Positions 21,801 through 60,800 of a stretch of DNA of 64,000 nucleotides are shown here, in pieces. Below the pieces are notes generated by a model. The model made no database searches and was not told where the DNA came from. It was given only the letters and a program-made list of their open reading frames with translations. Made by a program: the position numbers and the translations under genes. Position 1 is the stretch's first letter; each line of letters begins with the position of its first letter. Source of the DNA: Haplodiscus bocki (taxonomy: Eukaryota); contig OZ296654.1 in assembly GCA_965655095.1 (NCBI GenBank), forward strand, positions 25,792,001 through 25,856,000. Reading direction: 5' to 3'.

Positions 21801-24800
21801 GCCCAAGGATGGGCCTTGGTTAAGAATATCCTGCATCTCATCAGAAAACTTTTGGACCATTATGCTTTTTTGGACTTTTGCGTTTTCCACTACGAGAATG
21901 TTATAAAAATTCAGTATCGAGTCCGAACCAAGTGTTTGACGTCGGCTCACAGATTGACAAGAATGATCTTATCCACAAGGAAGAGAGTACTGTGAGGGTC
22001 GTTTTCTGCCTCTGGGTTGTTAAGATGACCAGAGTGGTGAGAAAAGTACCCCACTTCGGGGTAGGGATCGTCTGAGGAACGATACCCAGTGGTCCCCCGG
22101 TTTCCTGAATTATTGTTCCTGGATGTTCCCGGAACAGCTACGGAACAAGTTCGAACTTGTGGGTTCGGAAGAAACTCATCAAGCTTTGACAAGGCACCCA
22201 AGATACGTGACTCTGTTTTGCTGATTTTTTTTTGAGAGTTTTTTAGTTACTCTGCCTTCAATCTCCTCAGAGACCTGGGAGATGTAATCTTGAGTTAGTT
22301 CAGGGTCAAGTACGTTCTGTACTCTACTGCTTCTACTGCGTTCAGGTGTTTCTCTCGAAACTGCTGCTAATTTCCTCTTATTTTTTAACGTTGCTATCAG
22401 ACGAAAGGAAAAGTTTTATCAGCGATACAGACTGAATTTGAGCTTTTATCTTTATAATGAAAGTGATTATCTCCTCTAATTATGACGGAAAAGAGTCTCC
22501 AAACAAATACGACAGTCAATGATTTTAAAGGTACAATACCAAATAGCTACAAATTATATAATAACAACTGTACTTTTATTTCTCCTATTTATACCTTTCC
22601 TTGGCGGGAAACATAATTGTTTACACGCCAAATCAAGGTACAATTAGGGAAAAGTACTTTAATCATATCATGTTTCGAAAGAATAGATGCCGACTCTGGC
22701 GGGAAATAAACACCCTTCCGTCCATTTCTTCCTTCACGGACCGCGTCTTTTCCATCTTTCGACGGAAAAGGTACGGGTCCGATCAGTCGGAAATGGACAT
22801 CAAAGTGGTTATTCCCGCGCCGACACAATAAATAAAAACATAAATAAAAGATCAAAGAGGTTTCCATACAGGGAAAAAATACAAAAAAAATGGAAAAAGG
22901 GTTTAAAGTATGGAAAATAAAGTTTATAATGCTAAAAAGATTAATGTCTACATGCTACATCACTTGAAACCACTGTTGGGAACAAACTAGGCTGATTTCC
23001 TAGCTCGTTCCACGTTTCAGCCAGCTCAGGCCTCACTTTGGCCGGCGCGTTACGTGGCGACTACGTAGCCGCTTGTAGCACTGCTTTCCGCAGTGCTACT
23101 GAAGAGAATGATTCTGGTGGCTACGTAGACGTTCCGTGTCCGTCCAAAGTGAAACAGCGTAGTAGCACAGCGGATTGGCTGAAATTCTAGTGACGTCGCC
23201 AGATTAGTTACGACGGAACACATACGTAACAAATATTCACTTTAAAAGTCAAGCTCTGTTCTAATAGTTAAGCTATTGAAACTTGTTACAACTGTCAATC
23301 TAAATAACTGCACAGATTAAAAGGTGGATTTATATAATAATTAGTTAGATTAATTATATAAAATAGCACCTAATATTAATATAAAAATACAGTGAATATT
23401 CGTTTCATCCGTATCTATTCCGTGCCAATAAGGATCAGTTCACCAGAATTACACGTATCGGATACATGTTTCTACAGGAAACAAATATTATGGGACGATA
23501 CGTAACTACTACGTATAGTCTACATGAATTACATGTGAATACTAGATAGATATGTATTTACTACGTATCCTAAATATAAATTAATGAATACATGATGCGT
23601 TGGGCATTTAAATGGATAAAATTACACGTTTAATAGTTCGTAAGTGAGTTTGAATATCTTTACAGTTCTAATTCTTGCTTGATGGACCTGGGATGTCATT
23701 TGCTGAGGGGATCGTCTGACCGCAGGCTTCGCAGACATGCTGCGACAAGTACAGACAGTTTTCACAAATAGGAGGTTGTACTTTTTTTCAGGAGGTACAA
23801 TTTCGAACCTATACGCTCTTCTTCTGGCCAGGCACAAGTACTTCCCAGAATTGAAACACAAAGGGCTCCACGCTGAAAAACAACTGTGTATGTTCGTGTC
23901 TAAGGAGGTAAGTACTGTCAGCTAAGTTTTCACTTCTTTCGTTTTTGTGGAAAGTTTAAATATGATTTTTTTTTTAAATTTTTCTGTACAGTTCAATATC
24001 AGAAAGTGGAAAACGGAAGAAGTCCTTGTGAACAAAAAATATCGACTGAAAGTTGCTACAACTTTCCTACAATTTTGATCACGTAGTAAAATTTGACGTA
24101 ACCCAATTTATTAGAAGGTTAACGCCATTTCATTTTACCTTTGTCAAGAACTTTGGGAATATTTTGCAAATTAGCAAAACAAATTCTGCTGCTCTTCAAT
24201 AGAAACAGTTCATATCAAGGTATTGTTCTTACTATGAGGGAATCCGAGTTAAACTAATTTCGAAAAAGTGTTTTCCCAGAGATTGTTTAGTAAAACGTGC
24301 CAGAGGGTTGTCAGAAAAATTGGTATTTGTCTTCTGTAATATTTTTGGATTAAAAACGTTCAAAAACATGCAATTTTTTTGCAAAAAGAAATGCAAAGAA
24401 AGGCATCACAAATTCCTAAAATTTTAACATCAGCCATTAGAATGTATGTTTGATCCTCTCGTGTAGGGTATGTTTTGGTAGGACTTTGCTACGTTCTACC
24501 GGAAACTTGTGCTGCTTTGAGTAAATAGTTAGATTTATTTAAACGTCAGCTGATAAAAAAAACGTCGTATAAAGAGTGCGTTCAGCCATCTTTTTAAAAA
24601 AACTAAGTTCTAAGATGGTCGGTTTTTTTAAACTGAAGGTAAAGATATAGGAATTAGTTAGAAAGTTTACTTACAGGCTTGAAGCGGAGTATCAGTTGAG
24701 CCAACCGAAAGTTGCATGAAATTTCTGTGAAATGTTCGAAAACAGAAATTGTCATTGACTTCTGGTTATTCAAAGTTTAGAAAACTCCAAATTTGGCAAA

Positions 24801-36800: not shown

Positions 36801-39800
36801 CTTCCTTCGGGAAATCTTCTTGTTGTTATAACCCCGTGTGATCTGATTTGTTCATTGGTTTTGTGAACATAATATTACTCAAAGTATTATCCAATATTTA
36901 ATTGATGTCCGGTAATGAAAGTATTTTTCTGTGAAAGATATTATTTAGCACGATTGTATTATTCTATTACTTTGCGTCATTTAATTAACTTTGAGATAGC
37001 TTCTCATGAGAGAACATTTTTATTTAACAGTCAAGAGCTACGAGACACCCACCCTCTTAAAGAGAAGAATCAAGACAGAACCGCGTTTCTTAGCGCATCT
37101 TACCCCCACCGCCTCCGGATTTTTATACTTGTTTTTTCTTTCGGAGTTATAAATTTTTTGTGGTTGCTCCGCCGATCCCCCGTCTCGTTAATCTGGTACA
37201 CGTGTTTAATGGAGTAGTAGTGGAGCAATTTAAAAAGGGATTAGAAAAACTCCTCGATGATTCGATTCTTCTTTGGCGATTGTTGAAGGTACTTTTCAAA
37301 TTTTTACAGGGCGCTCCTGGGTGGGCTCATCTCTGTTTTGATTTCCTCTTCTATACTTTTAATCAAAATTATTCGTTTCGCCAGTTATTCTCCGTTCTAT
37401 TATTCTCTGGTTCATTTTCCCGATGCAGAGCGACGAAGACAACACCCCACAGCAGCAGCAGGAGGAAGGCGACACCGACCCAGTTGGTAAAAAGAAGTAC
37501 TCCAGTAAGTCCCATTCTTTGTTTCCACTATCAGACTCCGGTAAGAAGACCCAAAGACGTGAAGCTCAGTGCAAGTTGTTTAAACTTCAATGCGAACTGG
37601 AAAAACTCAAATTGGAAGCTGAAGACGACTCAGAAGAATCAGACGTCGCAGAGAATTTTTGTCGAAGTAAATCTAGAACGTTATACCAAGAATGCCCCAT
37701 TAAACCTGAGAAACTTCCGGGAAACTGTTTTAATCATTGGGAACTGTGGGTCAAGCACTATAAATCTGTAGTTAAAGCTACCGGATGGTCTGATGAGCAA
37801 GCGATCGAGGATTTCCTGCTTGCCTAACATCATGGGCTGTTGAAGAATTTGAAACCGTACCCGCCATTTTGTTGAAAAGGTTGTGGGGGAGAAAACGCCA
37901 AAATTTAATGCTTTACTAGCAGTACTTGAACGTGAAATGCAACAATACCGCAGTAAGAGAGCCGCAAGACCTGAGTTCAAAGCAGTAAAACAATTGGAAA
38001 ACGAAAGCTTGAAAGATTATTTCCGAAGAGTCCGTTATTTGGGAGATTCGGCACTTTCCGAAAAATCACTCACAGAAATGATCAGTATTCACGTGATCAG
38101 TTTTTGGATGGACTGTTCGACTTCCGGTTGCAACAGAAACTCTATGAAGACCAAACAGACCGCAATTTTTGCGATTTTGCGAAGTATTATACAGGGCCCA
38201 AGAACTAGAGCTCATCCAGAAAAATTCTGAACAAATACGCGGACCACTGCTGTAGCTTTTCTGGGATGTGAGATTGACCGATCAAGGATAACCAGAAGCC
38301 TCTGGGAGAAAGAGTCATCGCTGTGACCGTGAGAATAAAAATTGTTTATTTAACTCTAAATTATGTTAATCACTCTCCCCTCCTGTATTTATTTGCTACT
38401 TAAGTGAGTGAAGATCATTTTGCCCCGTATTTAACAAGTCCTTTCTCAGGTCTCTCCCTGCTTGGACAAATGTGATGAAAGAATTAGGTTAGAAAAAAAG
38501 GAAATGATGAAAAAGAACCTAGTTGACAGCTTCCCAGTGTTTGTTGAATTCAATCCGACTTACAAATTGTTGTTTGTTAGTTGTCTGCTTGATCGAAAAT
38601 TTTTTTTCACGAAATACGATACATACCATGGCTGGATAGAAAAAACTGAGAGGAACGGAATCAAACTGTTGTTTTGGCATTAAGGAGGGAAAAAAGAGAT
38701 GGAAGAGCGAAAACGCAAAATCCTTTGTTTGTGTCATGTTGAAGTGTTTTTAATTGCAGTAGACCTAATATTTGTGGAATGAAGATATTAAAGATATGTT
38801 TGGTAGAATGCACCCTCAACTAACAGTCATTAACAAACTCACAAAACAGAAAAGACGTGAAAAGTTTAGTAAACAAACTTTTCAGGAGAGTAGTAGTCCA
38901 AGTGGGGGGGAAAGTGAGATTTGTGCCAACGTTTTTTTTTTAAATGTTTTTTAAATTTTAATTGTCAACTAAAATAACTTAAATTGGAAGGTACTCGATA
39001 GGATATAGGAGATACAAAAGCTTATTAGTGAAATGAGAGCCAATGAGAACGCTCTACGCGTGGAAACAGCAACAGCAGCATAAAATTTAAAAGTTGGTTT
39101 AATTCGAAAATCAACTTCAACGTCCATTTTCTCGAAGACTATTATAGATAGAGCAAAACGGTTTTCACCAATGAAAACTACTTTCCAAGGCGGACAAGTT
39201 GGGTGGTTTTCACCGCATTCTGAAAGTTAAAAGTTGTCGATAAACTAAAACGAAAATTATTACGGTCCGGAAAATGGTAAAATCGCGAATTCACAGTTCA
39301 GTTGCAACTTTAGAAGCGCATAAAAGTGAAAGCGGAGTGGAAACAAAGTGTTATGAATACAGAAGGAATACAATAGGAGTGCTTTTGCAGTTAATTTGGA
39401 CCACGCGCACGGCCGCCACTACCCCGCGTACTAGCATATTTACGCTCTCGCTGCTCAAAATTAGATCTTTTTTATAATGTTCCCCAATGTTTGCTTGCTT
39501 ATTTCTCAAAGATGAAAAAAGATATCAACAAACGGTTTTCACCATTGTAAACTACATCCATAGAAATGCTTAAGTTTGGAATATGAGCAAAATCGGACGA
39601 ATTTAAGATAATGAAAAATTGTAGTAAACAGAAAGTGCACTCCAGAAATGGCCAAATTGACTTCAGTTAAAAATTTCTTCTGAGCGAACCACGTATCAGA
39701 AAAGGCTCGTATTAGTCTTAAACAAAAGATAATTAAATGGACCAGTGCCCCTGAAAAGATGAATTGATTATATCCAGCCTTTTTGGAGAACTGAATGAGA

Positions 39801-42800
39801 AATGGCCAAAAAACGCCCAAAATAGCCCAAAATCTTCAAAAATCGCAGTTTTTCGCTTATTAGTTAACGAATAGCCAATAGAAATCAACCATAGCACTAG
39901 CGATTGAAAGCTTTTTATTAAGGGGATTGGAGATTAACATTAGATCAAGCATAGCAAGCTACAAATGGCCGCCCCACAAAATTGCAACTAGCTAAAATCA
40001 CGGATTTTGGAAAATGTCGACTTGCAAAACGGCTACCCCCCCCGCAGGCCAGCAGAGATAGAAAACCCAAAATTTAACACAATGTTTCTAACAACCTTTC
40101 CCAGGAAACTGACCAAGGATTTCTTGAAATTTTGCCTTTACGTTGAGAAAATCGACTTTGATTGTGGACCCAGGTAGTCAAAAATGGCCAAAATCGGTAC
40201 TTTTGCGGAAAAGTAAACACATTTTTTTGAGACCAGCTAGAGGACTCATCTTTTCGTTAAAAAACTCTTACTTAAAGGTACTAATAGGAAAATACCACCC
40301 CCGCCCTGGAAAAAAATCTTACGTAGAGAAAAATGACCTCAAATTGACCAAAAATCGATTTTTCGGACATGGAACTTTGACTACTTTCAGAAAATCGCTT
40401 TTCTCGACCAAGAATATTGAAAATAACTAAAACAAAGTATATATTGCCAGAAACTAAATTGAATGCCGCGTATAATGATGTGCTCTTTCTTTATTTATGA
40501 CGCTTAGGATAGACACAATTAATTATTGAATTTTAGACGAAACTTACGCCTTTTTTCGGACATTTGTTTTTGCATGGATGTTATGACGGGAATGGTTAGG
40601 GAAGATAATTTAACAACTTATTTTGGAAGTAATTGTTCACGCGTGACGATTAGAATAGCTGACACATCAGCCAAAAGAGGTTGTCAATCAAAATGGTGAC
40701 ATAAACGAATAGAAACGAAGAGGTATTTAGTTACTCATTTTTTAACACCCCCGTTTTGCCAGTGGATACGACCAAAATCAAGTAATCATAACTGATGTAA
40801 GCAAAGAAAATAAACACCGATTAGTACCAAAACGGATGATTAGAGTACCGAAGTGAAATAAACGAAATAACCAACGAAAATTGATAAGTCATTTTAGAAG
40901 GGATTGGACACGAATAGCCGGATGACTGACAGGAATGCCGAAAGTAATTGATTGACACCGAAAGCCAGAAAAGTGGCTAGAAACGGAATTTTCCATTAGT
41001 AATAGATGACGAAAAGAACAAAAAGTGATAATATTGGAAACGAGAGAAACGAATGACTAAAATGATTAACTAGATGAAAATACGCTCGAAGACGAACGAA
41101 AAAGTGATGTGCTAGGCGCACAAAGTGAGTGGAAATCTAGAGAACGGTTTGCTTCTTTGCTGTCAACGGATAGAGTCCGAGTCTTTGAGTCCGGGACTAA
41201 AGATTGCAGATTTACTTTATCAACCCTTGTTAGAGAGTCCGGGACTTTTTAACTCTAGATTGTGAGATTGTGATCCGGGATCATAGTCTGTTGTCTTGAC
41301 AGAATTGGGAAGTTGGACTTCGCCAGATTCTTTTGAGATGTTCTTCTTTAACGCCGTGAGACGCGGGTTAGAGAGTAATTTGGGCCCCAGCGATGGCTGA
41401 ACCGTGGATTAGCTAGAAATAGCAGTCCGGGACTGTTTTGCTTCACTCTAAGAACGTTAGAGAAAGGCGGCGAGTTATTGAAATACAACTTCTTAATTTT
41501 CTCTATCATTCGTTGATTGAGTAGCTTTCAATTCATCCTTCGGGAAATCTTCTTGTTGTTATAACCCCGTGTGATCTGATTTGTTTATTGGTTTTGTGAA
41601 CATAATATTACTCAAAGTATTATCCATTATTTAATTGATGTCCGGTAGTGAAAGTATTATTCTGTGAAAGATATTATTTAGCACGATTGTATTAGTCTGG
41701 TACTTTGTGTCATTTAATTAACTTTGAGATAGCTTCTCATGAAAGAACATTTTTATTTAACAGTCAAGAGCTACGAGACACCCTCTTAAAGAGAAGAATC
41801 AAGACAGAACCGCGTTTCTTAGCGCATGTTACCCCCAGCGCCTCCGGATTTTTATACTTGTTTTTTCTTTCGGAGTTATAAATTTTTTGTGGTTGCTCCG
41901 CCGATCCCCCGTCTCGTTGATCTGGTACACGTGTTTAATGGAGTAGTAGTGGAGCAATTTAAAAAGGGATTAGAAAAACTCCTCGATGATTCGGTTACTC
42001 TTTGGCGATTGTTAAAGCTACTTTTCAAAATTCTACACCTTCTGCAAATGCATGTTTGTAAAATAGTGACTTGAAGAAATATATGAAGAAAATTTTCTTC
42101 ATTAATTTCTAAAATAACCATATTGCGAACATGAATTTGCAGAAGGCACTCGAAGTTTTTGATGCCAATTTTTCACGTTCCCAAATAGATTTCTTAGGGA
42201 AAAAGAAAAAAAATAAAAAAATGCTTTTCCCTACGAACAGACGCAAAGAACACAAGGAAAGTGCAAGATTTTGCACAATCAACCTCACCAATGCAAAAAT
42301 GCGATCCCCCGCCACGAATTAGAAGTGTACAGTTTTTGTACTTGTCATAATACCCCCAAGCAGCTTAAGTGAAGGAGGTTCAACATCACCCCTAGAAGGG
42401 GCAGAAAAACAAACCAAGCCGAGAGTGAAATGAATTTTTGATGACCAACAAAGGCCAGTTGATTGTGATACCCCCCTTTCCATTTTTACCTTTCTTGCAT
42501 TTCTTCCTCTACCCCCAAGTCGCAATCAGGGACACAGGTAGAGGGGATTTCATCGATTGATGACAAGCACACTCTAACTAACATCATTCCTTTTCCTCGC
42601 CTGCTAATTAAGACTGTGCACTTGTCAATATTGCCCAAAAATCAATCAAAAATACCCTTTTTGCTACCTGCTATACCTGTTGTGTATATTCCCATACGTT
42701 TACCAATATGCAGAGATGCGTCATTACATTGTATGCATGCATCACAGTACTAAAAAATCAAAGACAGTTTTTATCAAAAAAATACTGGGCTGTTGTTTTT

Positions 42801-57800: not shown

Positions 57801-60800
57801 GTGAGCAACAAAATTTAGGTTGTTCAATTTTTTTCACAAGTTAGAGACTCAACGGAAAATCAAATTTTTAAAAACTTCTCAAGTGAAAAAAACTGACAGG
57901 GTTCAAATTCTCAAAAACCTTTTCTCGTTTATTCTGAAGAGCTTTCACGATTTTATCCAATTTTTCGCAGTCAATTTTCAGGATGTTGGGGAAAGTTCCA
58001 ATTAATTCGATACTGGGAATGCCATTTTATTTACCACTTCATGCGGTTTAATCACTTCTGACTACGATATCACCTTTTGGTTTTCTCACCTAATTGTGTT
58101 AATATCAGAACTGATTCAAAGCTAAATTCAATATTTGAGAGCCAAAAAACTGCGCTGATACTCTCTGAAACAGAGCTGTTCAGTGATGAATTGTCAAGTT
58201 CAGAGAAAAACAAACCCGATGTTTTTCATAATCTCTGAATCAGCCCTGAAAACTGAAAACGTAAATGGGCTAAAATCAGCTTCGAATATCTCTAAGACTT
58301 CAACCCAGGAATGTATTGGTTGAAATGGTGAAATTGAGGCTAGTTTTTTTTCTCGAATAGTGTGGAGCAGAAGAAATCATTTTTTTTTCAACTGCGGCGA
58401 CAGAAATGGCTGTTGTTGCAGCACATCTGCGAGGCCTTCGGACAAGCTCGCGCGGAGAAAAACACAACCCCGGAACTTCTAGGGATTAAACGAGACTTAA
58501 CAAACACTGAACTATATGTTTTATATAAAAATTAAAAGTATTGCATGTAAAAGATACTCAGTGTATACGTATCAATCCGGTGATCGAGATTCGGACGGGA
58601 CCGTTACGGAAGAAACGATTATTCAACTTTCTTCAACGCGTCTATTTTTGTTCTCGAAGGTGCTATATTTACAATCAATTTATAGAGTTATTAATATAAA
58701 TCCACCTTATCAACAAGTAGTGAAACAGTTGAAACTGAATTTGACAATGTCATTGAGTTTGCCTAATAACAGTTGCAAAATATAGAGCGTGACTTTGAAA
58801 TTAAAAATTCATTCCGTACGTATTCCGTCGCTAACAATTTTGTGAAGTCTTCTGAATTCATTCCATTCAGCTCTGCTAGCATGCTGTGTCATTTTGGCCA
58901 ATTACTAAACAGTTCCGTTTTCACTTATTTCCTTTACTTCGGCAAAACTGCTACAAGCAACGCTACAAGCGACTACGGATCCGTTTCGGAACGCAATGGT
59001 GAATTTAAGGAACCAGCTAGTTGAAGCGAGGATTGGACAAGGAACGAGCCTAGTTCCGCTCCAAAAGTGTATTCAAACGATGCGCAGTGAGACCATATGT
59101 ACATTTTAACATGTAATTACCAAATTCATTTATTATTATTTTCAATTTGATGATTTCTCCAATAATAATTTCGTACTATGGGAAAACTTTTGATCATTTG
59201 TTTGTAATAATACTTTCGGTGTCGGCGCGGGAACAAGCACCTTGATGTGCCTTTCTGAAGGATTAGGCTCGCAGATTTTCCGTCGAAATATGGAAAAGAC
59301 GCAACCTTTGAGAGAAAAATGGATGAAAAGGTGTTTATTTCCCGCCAAATTCGACACTTTCGCCACCTTTTCAGATAATTTGATTTTAATTTTTTTCGCT
59401 CTCTGTACCTTGACTAGACGTGTAAACAATTACGTATTCCTGCCAAGGAAGAGGTATAAATGGGAGAAATGAGAGTGCTCTTATAATTAATATTGTACGA
59501 CTTGTGTTGTTTTACACGTTTCCCACTTTGCAATTCAGTTAACTATCTTTGATTCAAAGTTTTTCCTCTTTTAAAAGAAAAGCTACATTTTCGTTGCACT
59601 CAACAATTTTTTTACGCCATAAAAACGATAATTCAGTCTTCAAATATTGCTGAGCTTTTCCCTTCAAAAGATGGGGACATTGAGAAGTAAGCGAAAGTTA
59701 GCAGTTGTTTTAAGAGAAACACAAAAAGACCATCCTAGGGACAGCCCGTCACGAAACTCATCCGTTCCTGGAATCACCGAGAAGTACATCACCCAGATTT
59801 TTGAAGAGATTGAATGCAGGGTCACTAAGAAACTGTCCTAGGATTTCAGCAGGACAACGTCCCGCTTTTTGGGAGCTCTGTCTAATTTGGACGACTTTCT
59901 CTTGAACCCACAGTTACGGACACTCTCCGGGAACCTCCTGGAACACAAAGACAGAAAACCAGGAACCAACTGGGGATCGTTACCAGAATGATCCCCATCC
60001 TGAAGTGGAGTTCTCTATCTGTCAGTCCCACAATTTAATTGCCTCGGACCCAGATGAGCCCTCCCAGAGCGGTATATGGTAGCATAAATCTGTATCCTGG
60101 AGATAATTTATTTGTCAGTTTTTATCAATTTTTAGGACTCCCAGTCAAGAACAGTCAGGAACGCCCTCAAACAAAAACTCCCCTCCGTCTTTATACTTCG
60201 TGATACCCCCTTCCTTTTAAAGTTGATGTAGAAAACATTTTCGTATACCAAAGAGCCTCTCTACGATACTGTCGGCAGTGTGAAACATAATTTTTACGAC
60301 AAAAAATATCATTTGCAAAATTTTCCAGAAAAAAGGTGTTCTACGGGTTTTTTAGCCTTGTGGGCGGCTACATTTTGGGGCTATTCCCACCTTGTTTTAT
60401 CTCCGTACGAATATTTCTGAATTATTCAAGTAACCTCATGAGTAAGGCAGTAACGTTTTTTCGCAATTAATCATATTCTTCGGCGAACTAACACTATACG
60501 AACGGAAGTATCTGAAAAAATTTGTATGTTGCATTAATTATCTTTTTTCAAGAAAATCTTCCCAATTGATTTCTTTTTCATGCATCAATAATGTACATCC
60601 CTTTTCTCCCCTCTAGGGCCTCCTTGAGAGTTGTAACGCCCTGCACGCGGACTACCTGTTCCAACAGGACAAGCACTATGACGTCAGCTACGACACGGGA
60701 GACAAGGCGATCCAGTGTGGACGTCACGTGGACATCTTCAAGTTCTGGCTCATGTGGAGGGCCAAGGGCAGAGTGGGCATGGAGGCACATGTCAACCTGA

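Follow-up and report, generated by a model that had tools for sequence, protein, structure and literature searches.

Introduction

Can a long terminal repeat (LTR) contain part of a real protein, and if so, which protein is it? The question is raised by two solo LTRs of one family in the stretch of 64,000 nucleotides analysed here (the window; Haplodiscus bocki, assembly GCA_965655095.1, contig OZ296654.1, positions 25,792,001 to 25,856,000). Both carry related reading frames of approximately 135 codons that run off the 3' terminus of the LTR. According to a sequence-only reading of the window, the LTRs of this family hold the code for a long N-terminal segment that reads through the primer-binding site, and every solo LTR would hence be a portable promoter plus open exon. 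We consider it very probable that the frame represents the first 135 codons of gag, that the solo LTRs are a neutrally decaying by-product, and that in two subfamilies the LTR end has moved further into gag, likely by in-frame duplication of the primer site.

Two solo LTRs in a decarboxylase gene

The two related peptides were found again in the window, and the TG..CA and target-site duplication (TSD) boundaries assigned to them are true LTR ends, as can be seen from two-LTR elements and from solo LTRs with target duplications. Copy A (21991-23747, minus strand, 1757 bp, TG...CA) is flanked by a perfect 5-bp target duplication, of which the right copy in element orientation is located at 21986-21990 and the left copy at 23748-23752. 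Its 5' gag segment (21991-22397, minus strand) comprises 135 codons and an A, which in 5' LTRs opens the next codon. The frame of copy A is broken by an ATA at the start position and by a frameshift near 22225-22233. Copy B (58414-60068, plus strand, 1655 bp) belongs to an older subfamily; its LTR end is decayed (TG...GA) and its target duplication matches at four of five positions. The gag segment in copy B (59671-60068, plus strand) is interrupted by a stop at 59839-59841, i.e. after 56 codons, and carries a deletion further on. Contigs of four sequencing runs span the LTR junction at 21991 and show the LTR to be strongly repetitive.

Both solo LTRs are intronic in the same pyridoxal-dependent decarboxylase gene of the glutamate/cysteine-sulfinate decarboxylase type (PF00282), which extends over at least 41 kb (19291-60871, plus strand); copy A is inserted in antisense and copy B in sense orientation. 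The window also contains a duplication at 34507-37308 and 38932-42037 (94-97% identical, spacing 4.4-4.7 kb), which is probably a second LTR family. Gag-like frames of apparently another retrotransposon are situated between the duplicated parts, at 37363-38230.

Anatomy of the element family

The LTR family is very abundant in the genome, with 5433 and 4423 candidates at first look, 1284 exact matches to one 20-mer and, repeats included, 2038 to the junction 16-mer. Among 24 whole LTRs of the younger A type, we found 11 solo LTRs with a perfect and two with a near TSD, seven 3' LTRs that follow a polypurine tract, and four 5' LTRs that precede a primer site. The LTRs of the family are 1.6-1.8 kb long. 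Two two-LTR elements of approximately 13-15 kb, each within a shared 5-bp target duplication, show the pol order reverse transcriptase (RT), RNase H and integrase (PF00078, PF17917/PF17919, PF17921, PF00665). The gag capsid was matched by PF03564 above the cut-off and by PF03732 below it (20.8 of 24.1 bits), and two CCHC-like, i.e. zinc-knuckle-like, motifs are visible in Gag. At the protease position, two frames gave no Pfam match; a D-S-x motif is visible there. A search of the PDB with the RT resulted in weak matches to retroviral RTs only. Both the polypurine tract before the 3' LTR and the tRNA primer site after the 5' LTR are present; the primer site is complementary to 12-13 nt of the tRNA-Leu(CAG) of this genome, CCA end included.

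Judged by its LTR ends, TSD, primer site, polypurine tract, gag and pol order, the family is of the Ty3/gypsy type (Metaviridae). The integrase-before-RT order of the Ty1/copia elements (Pseudoviridae) was not found in the two-LTR elements. PF03564 and the BEL-type RNase H/peptidase A17 domain are associated with BEL/Pao elements; that domain was not matched here, PF17917 and PF17919 being the only families hit by the RNase H frame.

Several further features of the family were observed. In autonomous elements, pol and the 3' LTR are separated by an extra region of 4-5 kb (L031:4665-8709, L034:408-3320, L186:618-4956, L187:164-4465). Its antisense frames, 150-512 residues long, have the appearance of exons that belong to a single spliced gene, with a basic C-terminus and a C2H2-like zinc finger for which Pfam gave no more than weak hints. 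This region has 6477 first-look candidates, many of them open; it resembles antisense ORFs known from Ty3/gypsy elements of plants. A young gag-only derivative of approximately 7.1 kb (L083-L086, e.g. G000:C1:99885800-99895200), to which subfamily D belongs, has LTR pairs of 95-99% identity and no pol match but keeps the gag that is initiated in the LTR. Copies of a second family are found directly beside several matches as nested or adjacent insertions (L008:1144-1392, L003:23-517, L011:2180-3426). The target duplications often start with G or A and end with C or T, an uncounted impression that hints at a weak palindromic target preference. Furthermore, a tandem array with a period of approximately 424 bp (G000:C1:161094516-161170702) matches the 3' pattern of tRNA-Leu(CAG), which has 616 forward matches genome-wide; it is possibly a large gene array for the primer tRNA.

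Upstream of the reading frame, the LTR contains candidate regulatory parts, for which the coordinates are given in copy A on the minus strand. A TATA-like box, regarded as a candidate core promoter, is located at 22586-22593, approximately 190 nt upstream of the ATG, and is matched in 26 of 35 LTRs. The motif TCAKTY at 22430-22435, approximately 35 nt upstream of the ATG and found in 29 of the 35 LTRs, may represent an initiator or a poly(A) cleavage site. A conserved non-coding block (22604-22818) harbours three TTSSCGC sites; most of the 35 LTRs have two or three such sites in constant positions, upstream of the TATA-like box (22604-22818 in copy A, 59222-59350 in copy B). The motif, which we take to be E2F-like, would fit a promoter that is active in dividing cells. 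An INR consensus is given in the available part of PMC3601003, according to which the borders of U3, R and U5 need RNA data.

The LTR frame continues into gag

The sequence-only reading had left open whether the frame continues into gag in full-length elements, and it does. In two-LTR elements, the frame starts approximately 406 nt inside the LTR, passes through the tRNA-Leu(CAG) primer site and is gag from there on; one of these elements has a natural stop-free frame of 508 residues that begins just before the LTR ATG and reaches the capsid region, while the whole Gag in database proteins comprises approximately 552 residues. The LTR contributes 135 codons plus one base, and the junction is read as His-Met-Val-Thr-Gly, with a Met codon made of the last LTR base and the first two bases of the primer site. 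At all 12 LTR/primer-site junction loci examined, the LTR peptide is in register with gag, and at five of these 12 one frame could be aligned to Gag 1-552. The proposal of a long Gag N-terminal segment that reads through the primer site was thus borne out. The ATG start is kept in 56 of 60 copies. Moreover, the frame is open to the LTR end in 25 of 30 A-type and seven of 30 B-type copies, in line with the earlier statement that no shared stop occurs before the LTR end; the 30 copies of each type were chosen by likeness to the coding stretch, which favours intact copies and inflates the open share. RNA structure over the coding segment and the junction was nothing special (z -1.1).

It could be argued that the frame in the LTR encodes a separate accessory protein or represents an upstream ORF, and that Gag proper starts at the ATG of the junction. 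An in-frame ATG does form there, the Pfam capsid matches start only near residue 240, and the segment itself has no Pfam, PDB or viral-fold match. However, natural open copies have no stop between the two parts, indels at the junction are always multiples of three, and it is the upstream ATG that is so widely kept, followed by the most constrained codons of the segment (2-15, see below). We regard this alternative as highly improbable, although both the LTR ATG and the junction ATG could be used as starts.

As part of gag, the LTR-encoded segment begins with a basic tip (five Lys/Arg within the first 20 residues), shows a hydrophobic face with a spacing of 3-4 residues over residues 34-81 and ends in a tail rich in Ser, Asn, Thr and Pro. 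AlphaFold2 applied to 11 natural frames predicted a single helix over residues 24-77, with a pLDDT of 81-96 for residues 31-70, low values elsewhere and a mean of 62 for the N-terminal model; the model of the full Gag was unusable at a mean pLDDT of 36.5. The basic N-terminus suggested before is present, and so, by prediction, is the long amphipathic helix. This helix would likely serve as a self-association or host-contact segment of Gag; that the LTR-encoded part takes part in self-association, in nuclear import or in contacts with the host is a guess. Searches with the segment gave no Pfam family, no PDB sequence match and no viral-fold match at E<=0.001. In the homologue searches, close relatives were found throughout the best 120 of 973, 150 of 2121 and 120 of 1628 matches. 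One locus (L053) with a compensating frameshift was left out of the protein alignment.

Selection acts on the replicating element

The impression that the peptide is better conserved than the upstream LTR DNA was not confirmed. Per 100 nt, copies A and B have a DNA identity of 0.44-0.71 over the coding stretch, against 0.67-0.76 over the conserved blocks upstream of it (LTR positions 501-600 and 901-1200). The coding stretch is marked by the distribution of its changes instead: differences between subfamilies amount to 0.315, 0.254 and 0.490 at the first, second and third codon position, whereas no such rise at the third position is seen in the two conserved blocks upstream (0.33/0.26/0.33 and 0.23/0.22/0.24). 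It is because of this third-position excess, and not because of DNA-level conservation, that we judge the stretch to be coding, and in these counts the coding signal exceeds chance by far. The upstream blocks lack codon periodicity, so that a further coding frame there was rejected.

The comparison of dN/dS between subfamilies, which had been suggested as a check of the peptide, gave a value below 1, namely 0.37 for A against B (codon bootstrap 0.27-0.50). This value is based on pairwise codon counts in the 30 A-type and 30 B-type natural copies chosen by likeness, with a transition/transversion ratio of 4.1, a simple correction and non-independent pairs. Resolved by codons, A against B gave 0.12 for codons 2-15, 0.64 for 16-34, 0.18 for 35-90 and 0.79 for 91-135. 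As estimated from these values, only about half of the LTR segment is clearly constrained, with 0.64 and 0.79 in the linker regions; the two constrained blocks coincide with the basic tip and the predicted helix 24-77. The two window copies compared with each other gave 0.48. In contrast to the differences between subfamilies, constraint was not found in inserted copies. Changes private to one copy resulted in a dN/dS of 0.94 for A (50 synonymous, 114 nonsynonymous) and 1.42 for B (46 synonymous, 160 nonsynonymous, 12 of these stops), the 5' and 3' LTRs within one element differ with 0.93 (two pairs), and the 11 TSD-proven solo LTRs alone gave 1.15 (15 synonymous, 42 not; p=0.77 against neutrality). 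Low dN/dS between subfamilies together with neutral private changes leads to the conclusion that the peptide was constrained while elements replicated and became free after insertion.

This conclusion bears directly on the view of solo LTRs as promoter-plus-exon modules. Under that explanation, solo LTRs are kept for this function and the host uses the LTR peptide as an N-terminal tag on chimeric proteins. There are thousands of LTR copies, the 25 of 30 young copies mentioned above have an open frame up to the LTR end, a host intron contains copy B in sense orientation, and gene predictors call many proteins that consist of LTR plus flank (2121 representatives, E<=0.001). However, the private changes are neutral also when solo copies are taken alone, 23 of the 30 older copies and both window copies are broken, and a conserved donor-like site is missing: in the last 420 nt, at most three of 35 LTRs share a splice-donor-like site. 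Where the frame of a solo or 3' copy is open, it meets a stop after about 1-53 codons in the flank. Open frames in solo LTRs are found because the copies are young. Hence, as a statement on function, the portable exon is not supported, and we attach hardly any credence to host use of the modules in general; a few exapted solo copies may exist among the thousands, which would be compatible with the copies sampled.

The LTR end has moved in two subfamilies

The junction between LTR end and primer site is an in-frame repeat array with periods of 24 nt and 42 nt in the DNA. According to a rough motif count, 0-5 units are present in 82 database proteins. Two derived subfamilies differ from the unextended ones in the position of the LTR end, which is located 24-48 nt (C) or 42 nt (D) further downstream. 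Subfamily C has 71 matches, of which 30 loci were read; all 30 run past a primer-like relic, and their solo and 3' LTRs end 24 nt later. Among 19 end pairs of this subfamily, 11 perfect and one near TSD were found at +24, one perfect TSD at +48 and none at the old end; the remaining pairs comprise four 3' LTRs behind a polypurine tract and two without a resolved end. Four further loci have the intact old A-type end followed by one unit and then by flank (three) or by a full primer site (one). In subfamily D (84 matches, 30 loci read), the LTR includes a complete 42-nt unit, whose primer site is decayed, so that its coding content rises to 150 codons. The primer site follows the LTR in eight of the 30 loci. 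The 20 end pairs of subfamily D contain seven perfect and three near TSDs at the new end, i.e. 42 nt past the relic, and none at the old end, besides four unpaired 5' LTRs, four 3' LTRs and two pairs without a resolved end. Counted from the tRNA 3' end, the relics pair over 8 and 0 nt, the sites in use over 12.

The relationships of the subfamilies were analysed in a tree of 95 natural copies, with every second C and D locus included and rooted at the midpoint. Subfamily D falls within a 100/100 clade alongside nine unextended B copies, while C groups with A at 100/100, its exact place there depending on weak internal branches. The simplest reading of extended subfamilies nested among unextended ones would be two independent extensions.

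How could the end of an LTR be shifted into a gene? During the standard replication cycle of LTR elements, both LTRs receive a copy of the RNA stretch that begins at the 5' end and reaches to the primer site in use. A gag start situated in this stretch would be duplicated for free in every LTR, and it would persist in solo LTRs after LTR-LTR recombination. When the junction is duplicated, the additional unit of 24 or 42 nt would supply a second full primer site with its own CA end downstream. A switch of reverse transcription to this downstream site would add the upstream unit to both LTRs, the upstream primer site, no longer used, would decay, and gag would be kept in frame by the length of the units.

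Alternatively, the longer LTR ends may have arisen by DNA-level slippage or unequal recombination in one LTR and spread to the other by conversion, with the primer site unchanged. Slippage typically produces short tandem repeats such as these units of 24-42 nt, and the 82 database proteins vary in unit number (0 to 5). However, extended solo and 3' LTRs have their TSD at the new end, from which it follows that the integrase cut there. In 5' LTRs, moreover, the full primer site follows the new end and the upstream copy is truncated or decayed. Slippage accounts for the duplication but not for a fixed shift of both LTRs, and we consider it very unlikely as an explanation of the longer ends. Duplication of the junction with a switch of the primer site in use is a likely route by which an LTR takes in coding sequence, as read from the last 8-16 codons. 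A search for an older primer or junction relic in the first 135 codons gave none above shuffles (best score 11.3 versus 11.1); therefore, the junction mechanism is shown only for these last codons. One could go further and assume that in-frame junction duplication acts as a ratchet that walks the LTR into gag, that repeated steps placed all 135-150 codons there, and that this is a general, overlooked route of LTR growth that seeds thousands of promoter-plus-ATG exons. We mention this wider idea as a speculation that we hold to be rather unlikely.

Comparison with known systems

Elements of the Ty3/gypsy type usually have non-coding LTRs and a gag downstream of the primer site. The family shares with animal Ty3/gypsy elements (Metaviridae) the TG..CA LTRs, the 5-bp TSD, primer site and polypurine tract, a zinc-knuckle-like gag and the order RT-RNase H-integrase; it differs from them in its coding LTR and in the extra region of 4-5 kb with antisense frames. 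Coding sequence that overlaps an LTR is also known from HIV nef and MMTV sag, where it is situated in U3 and read from the 3' LTR. In contrast, the frame described here starts near the LTR's 3' end and is read from the 5' LTR.

The closest likeness in the position of the gag start is Ty1 of Saccharomyces, a Ty1/copia element. As far as the available part of PMC5454406 goes, the Ty1 LTR has 334 bp, its RNA starts at nt 241 with a 5' UTR of 53 nt, and substitutions in the primer site at 335-347 keep the GAG protein, i.e. the LTR contains the start of gag, and the gag coding sequence includes the primer site. By arithmetic from these figures, approximately 13 gag codons are located inside the Ty1 LTR. 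Compared to Ty1, the family in Haplodiscus bocki has about ten times more gag codons in the LTR (135-150), a gypsy-type pol order, LTRs of 1.6-1.8 kb, a tRNA-Leu primer and a junction repeat array with shifting ends. Judging from this layout, the element resembles Ty1 at the gag start and is not a member of the Ty1/copia group. More than one tRNA-binding site per genome has been described for Drosophila gypsy and Ty3 (PMC1635307); according to the available part of that paper, the second site is situated close to the 3' end, where a different part of the tRNA binds to it, whereas the primer-site copies found here are arranged in tandem, keep the frame and go with different LTR ends. A literature search of partial coverage gave no account of more than 100 gag codons in an LTR, nor of shifts of LTR ends via primer-site duplication.

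Significance

The anatomy of the family is an extreme variant of a known arrangement, the gag start in the LTR, and copy A itself is a dead by-product of it. Approximately a quarter of Gag is encoded inside the LTR, while LTRs are usually viewed as non-coding, with boundaries fixed by the primer site. For genome annotation this is a warning, since solo copies yield thousands of spurious proteins composed of LTR plus flank, and from the conservation of a peptide in solo LTRs it does not follow that the host uses it. For the biology of the elements, subfamilies C and D provide dated snapshots of an LTR boundary that moves by whole in-frame units, which makes the lengthening of LTRs directly testable.
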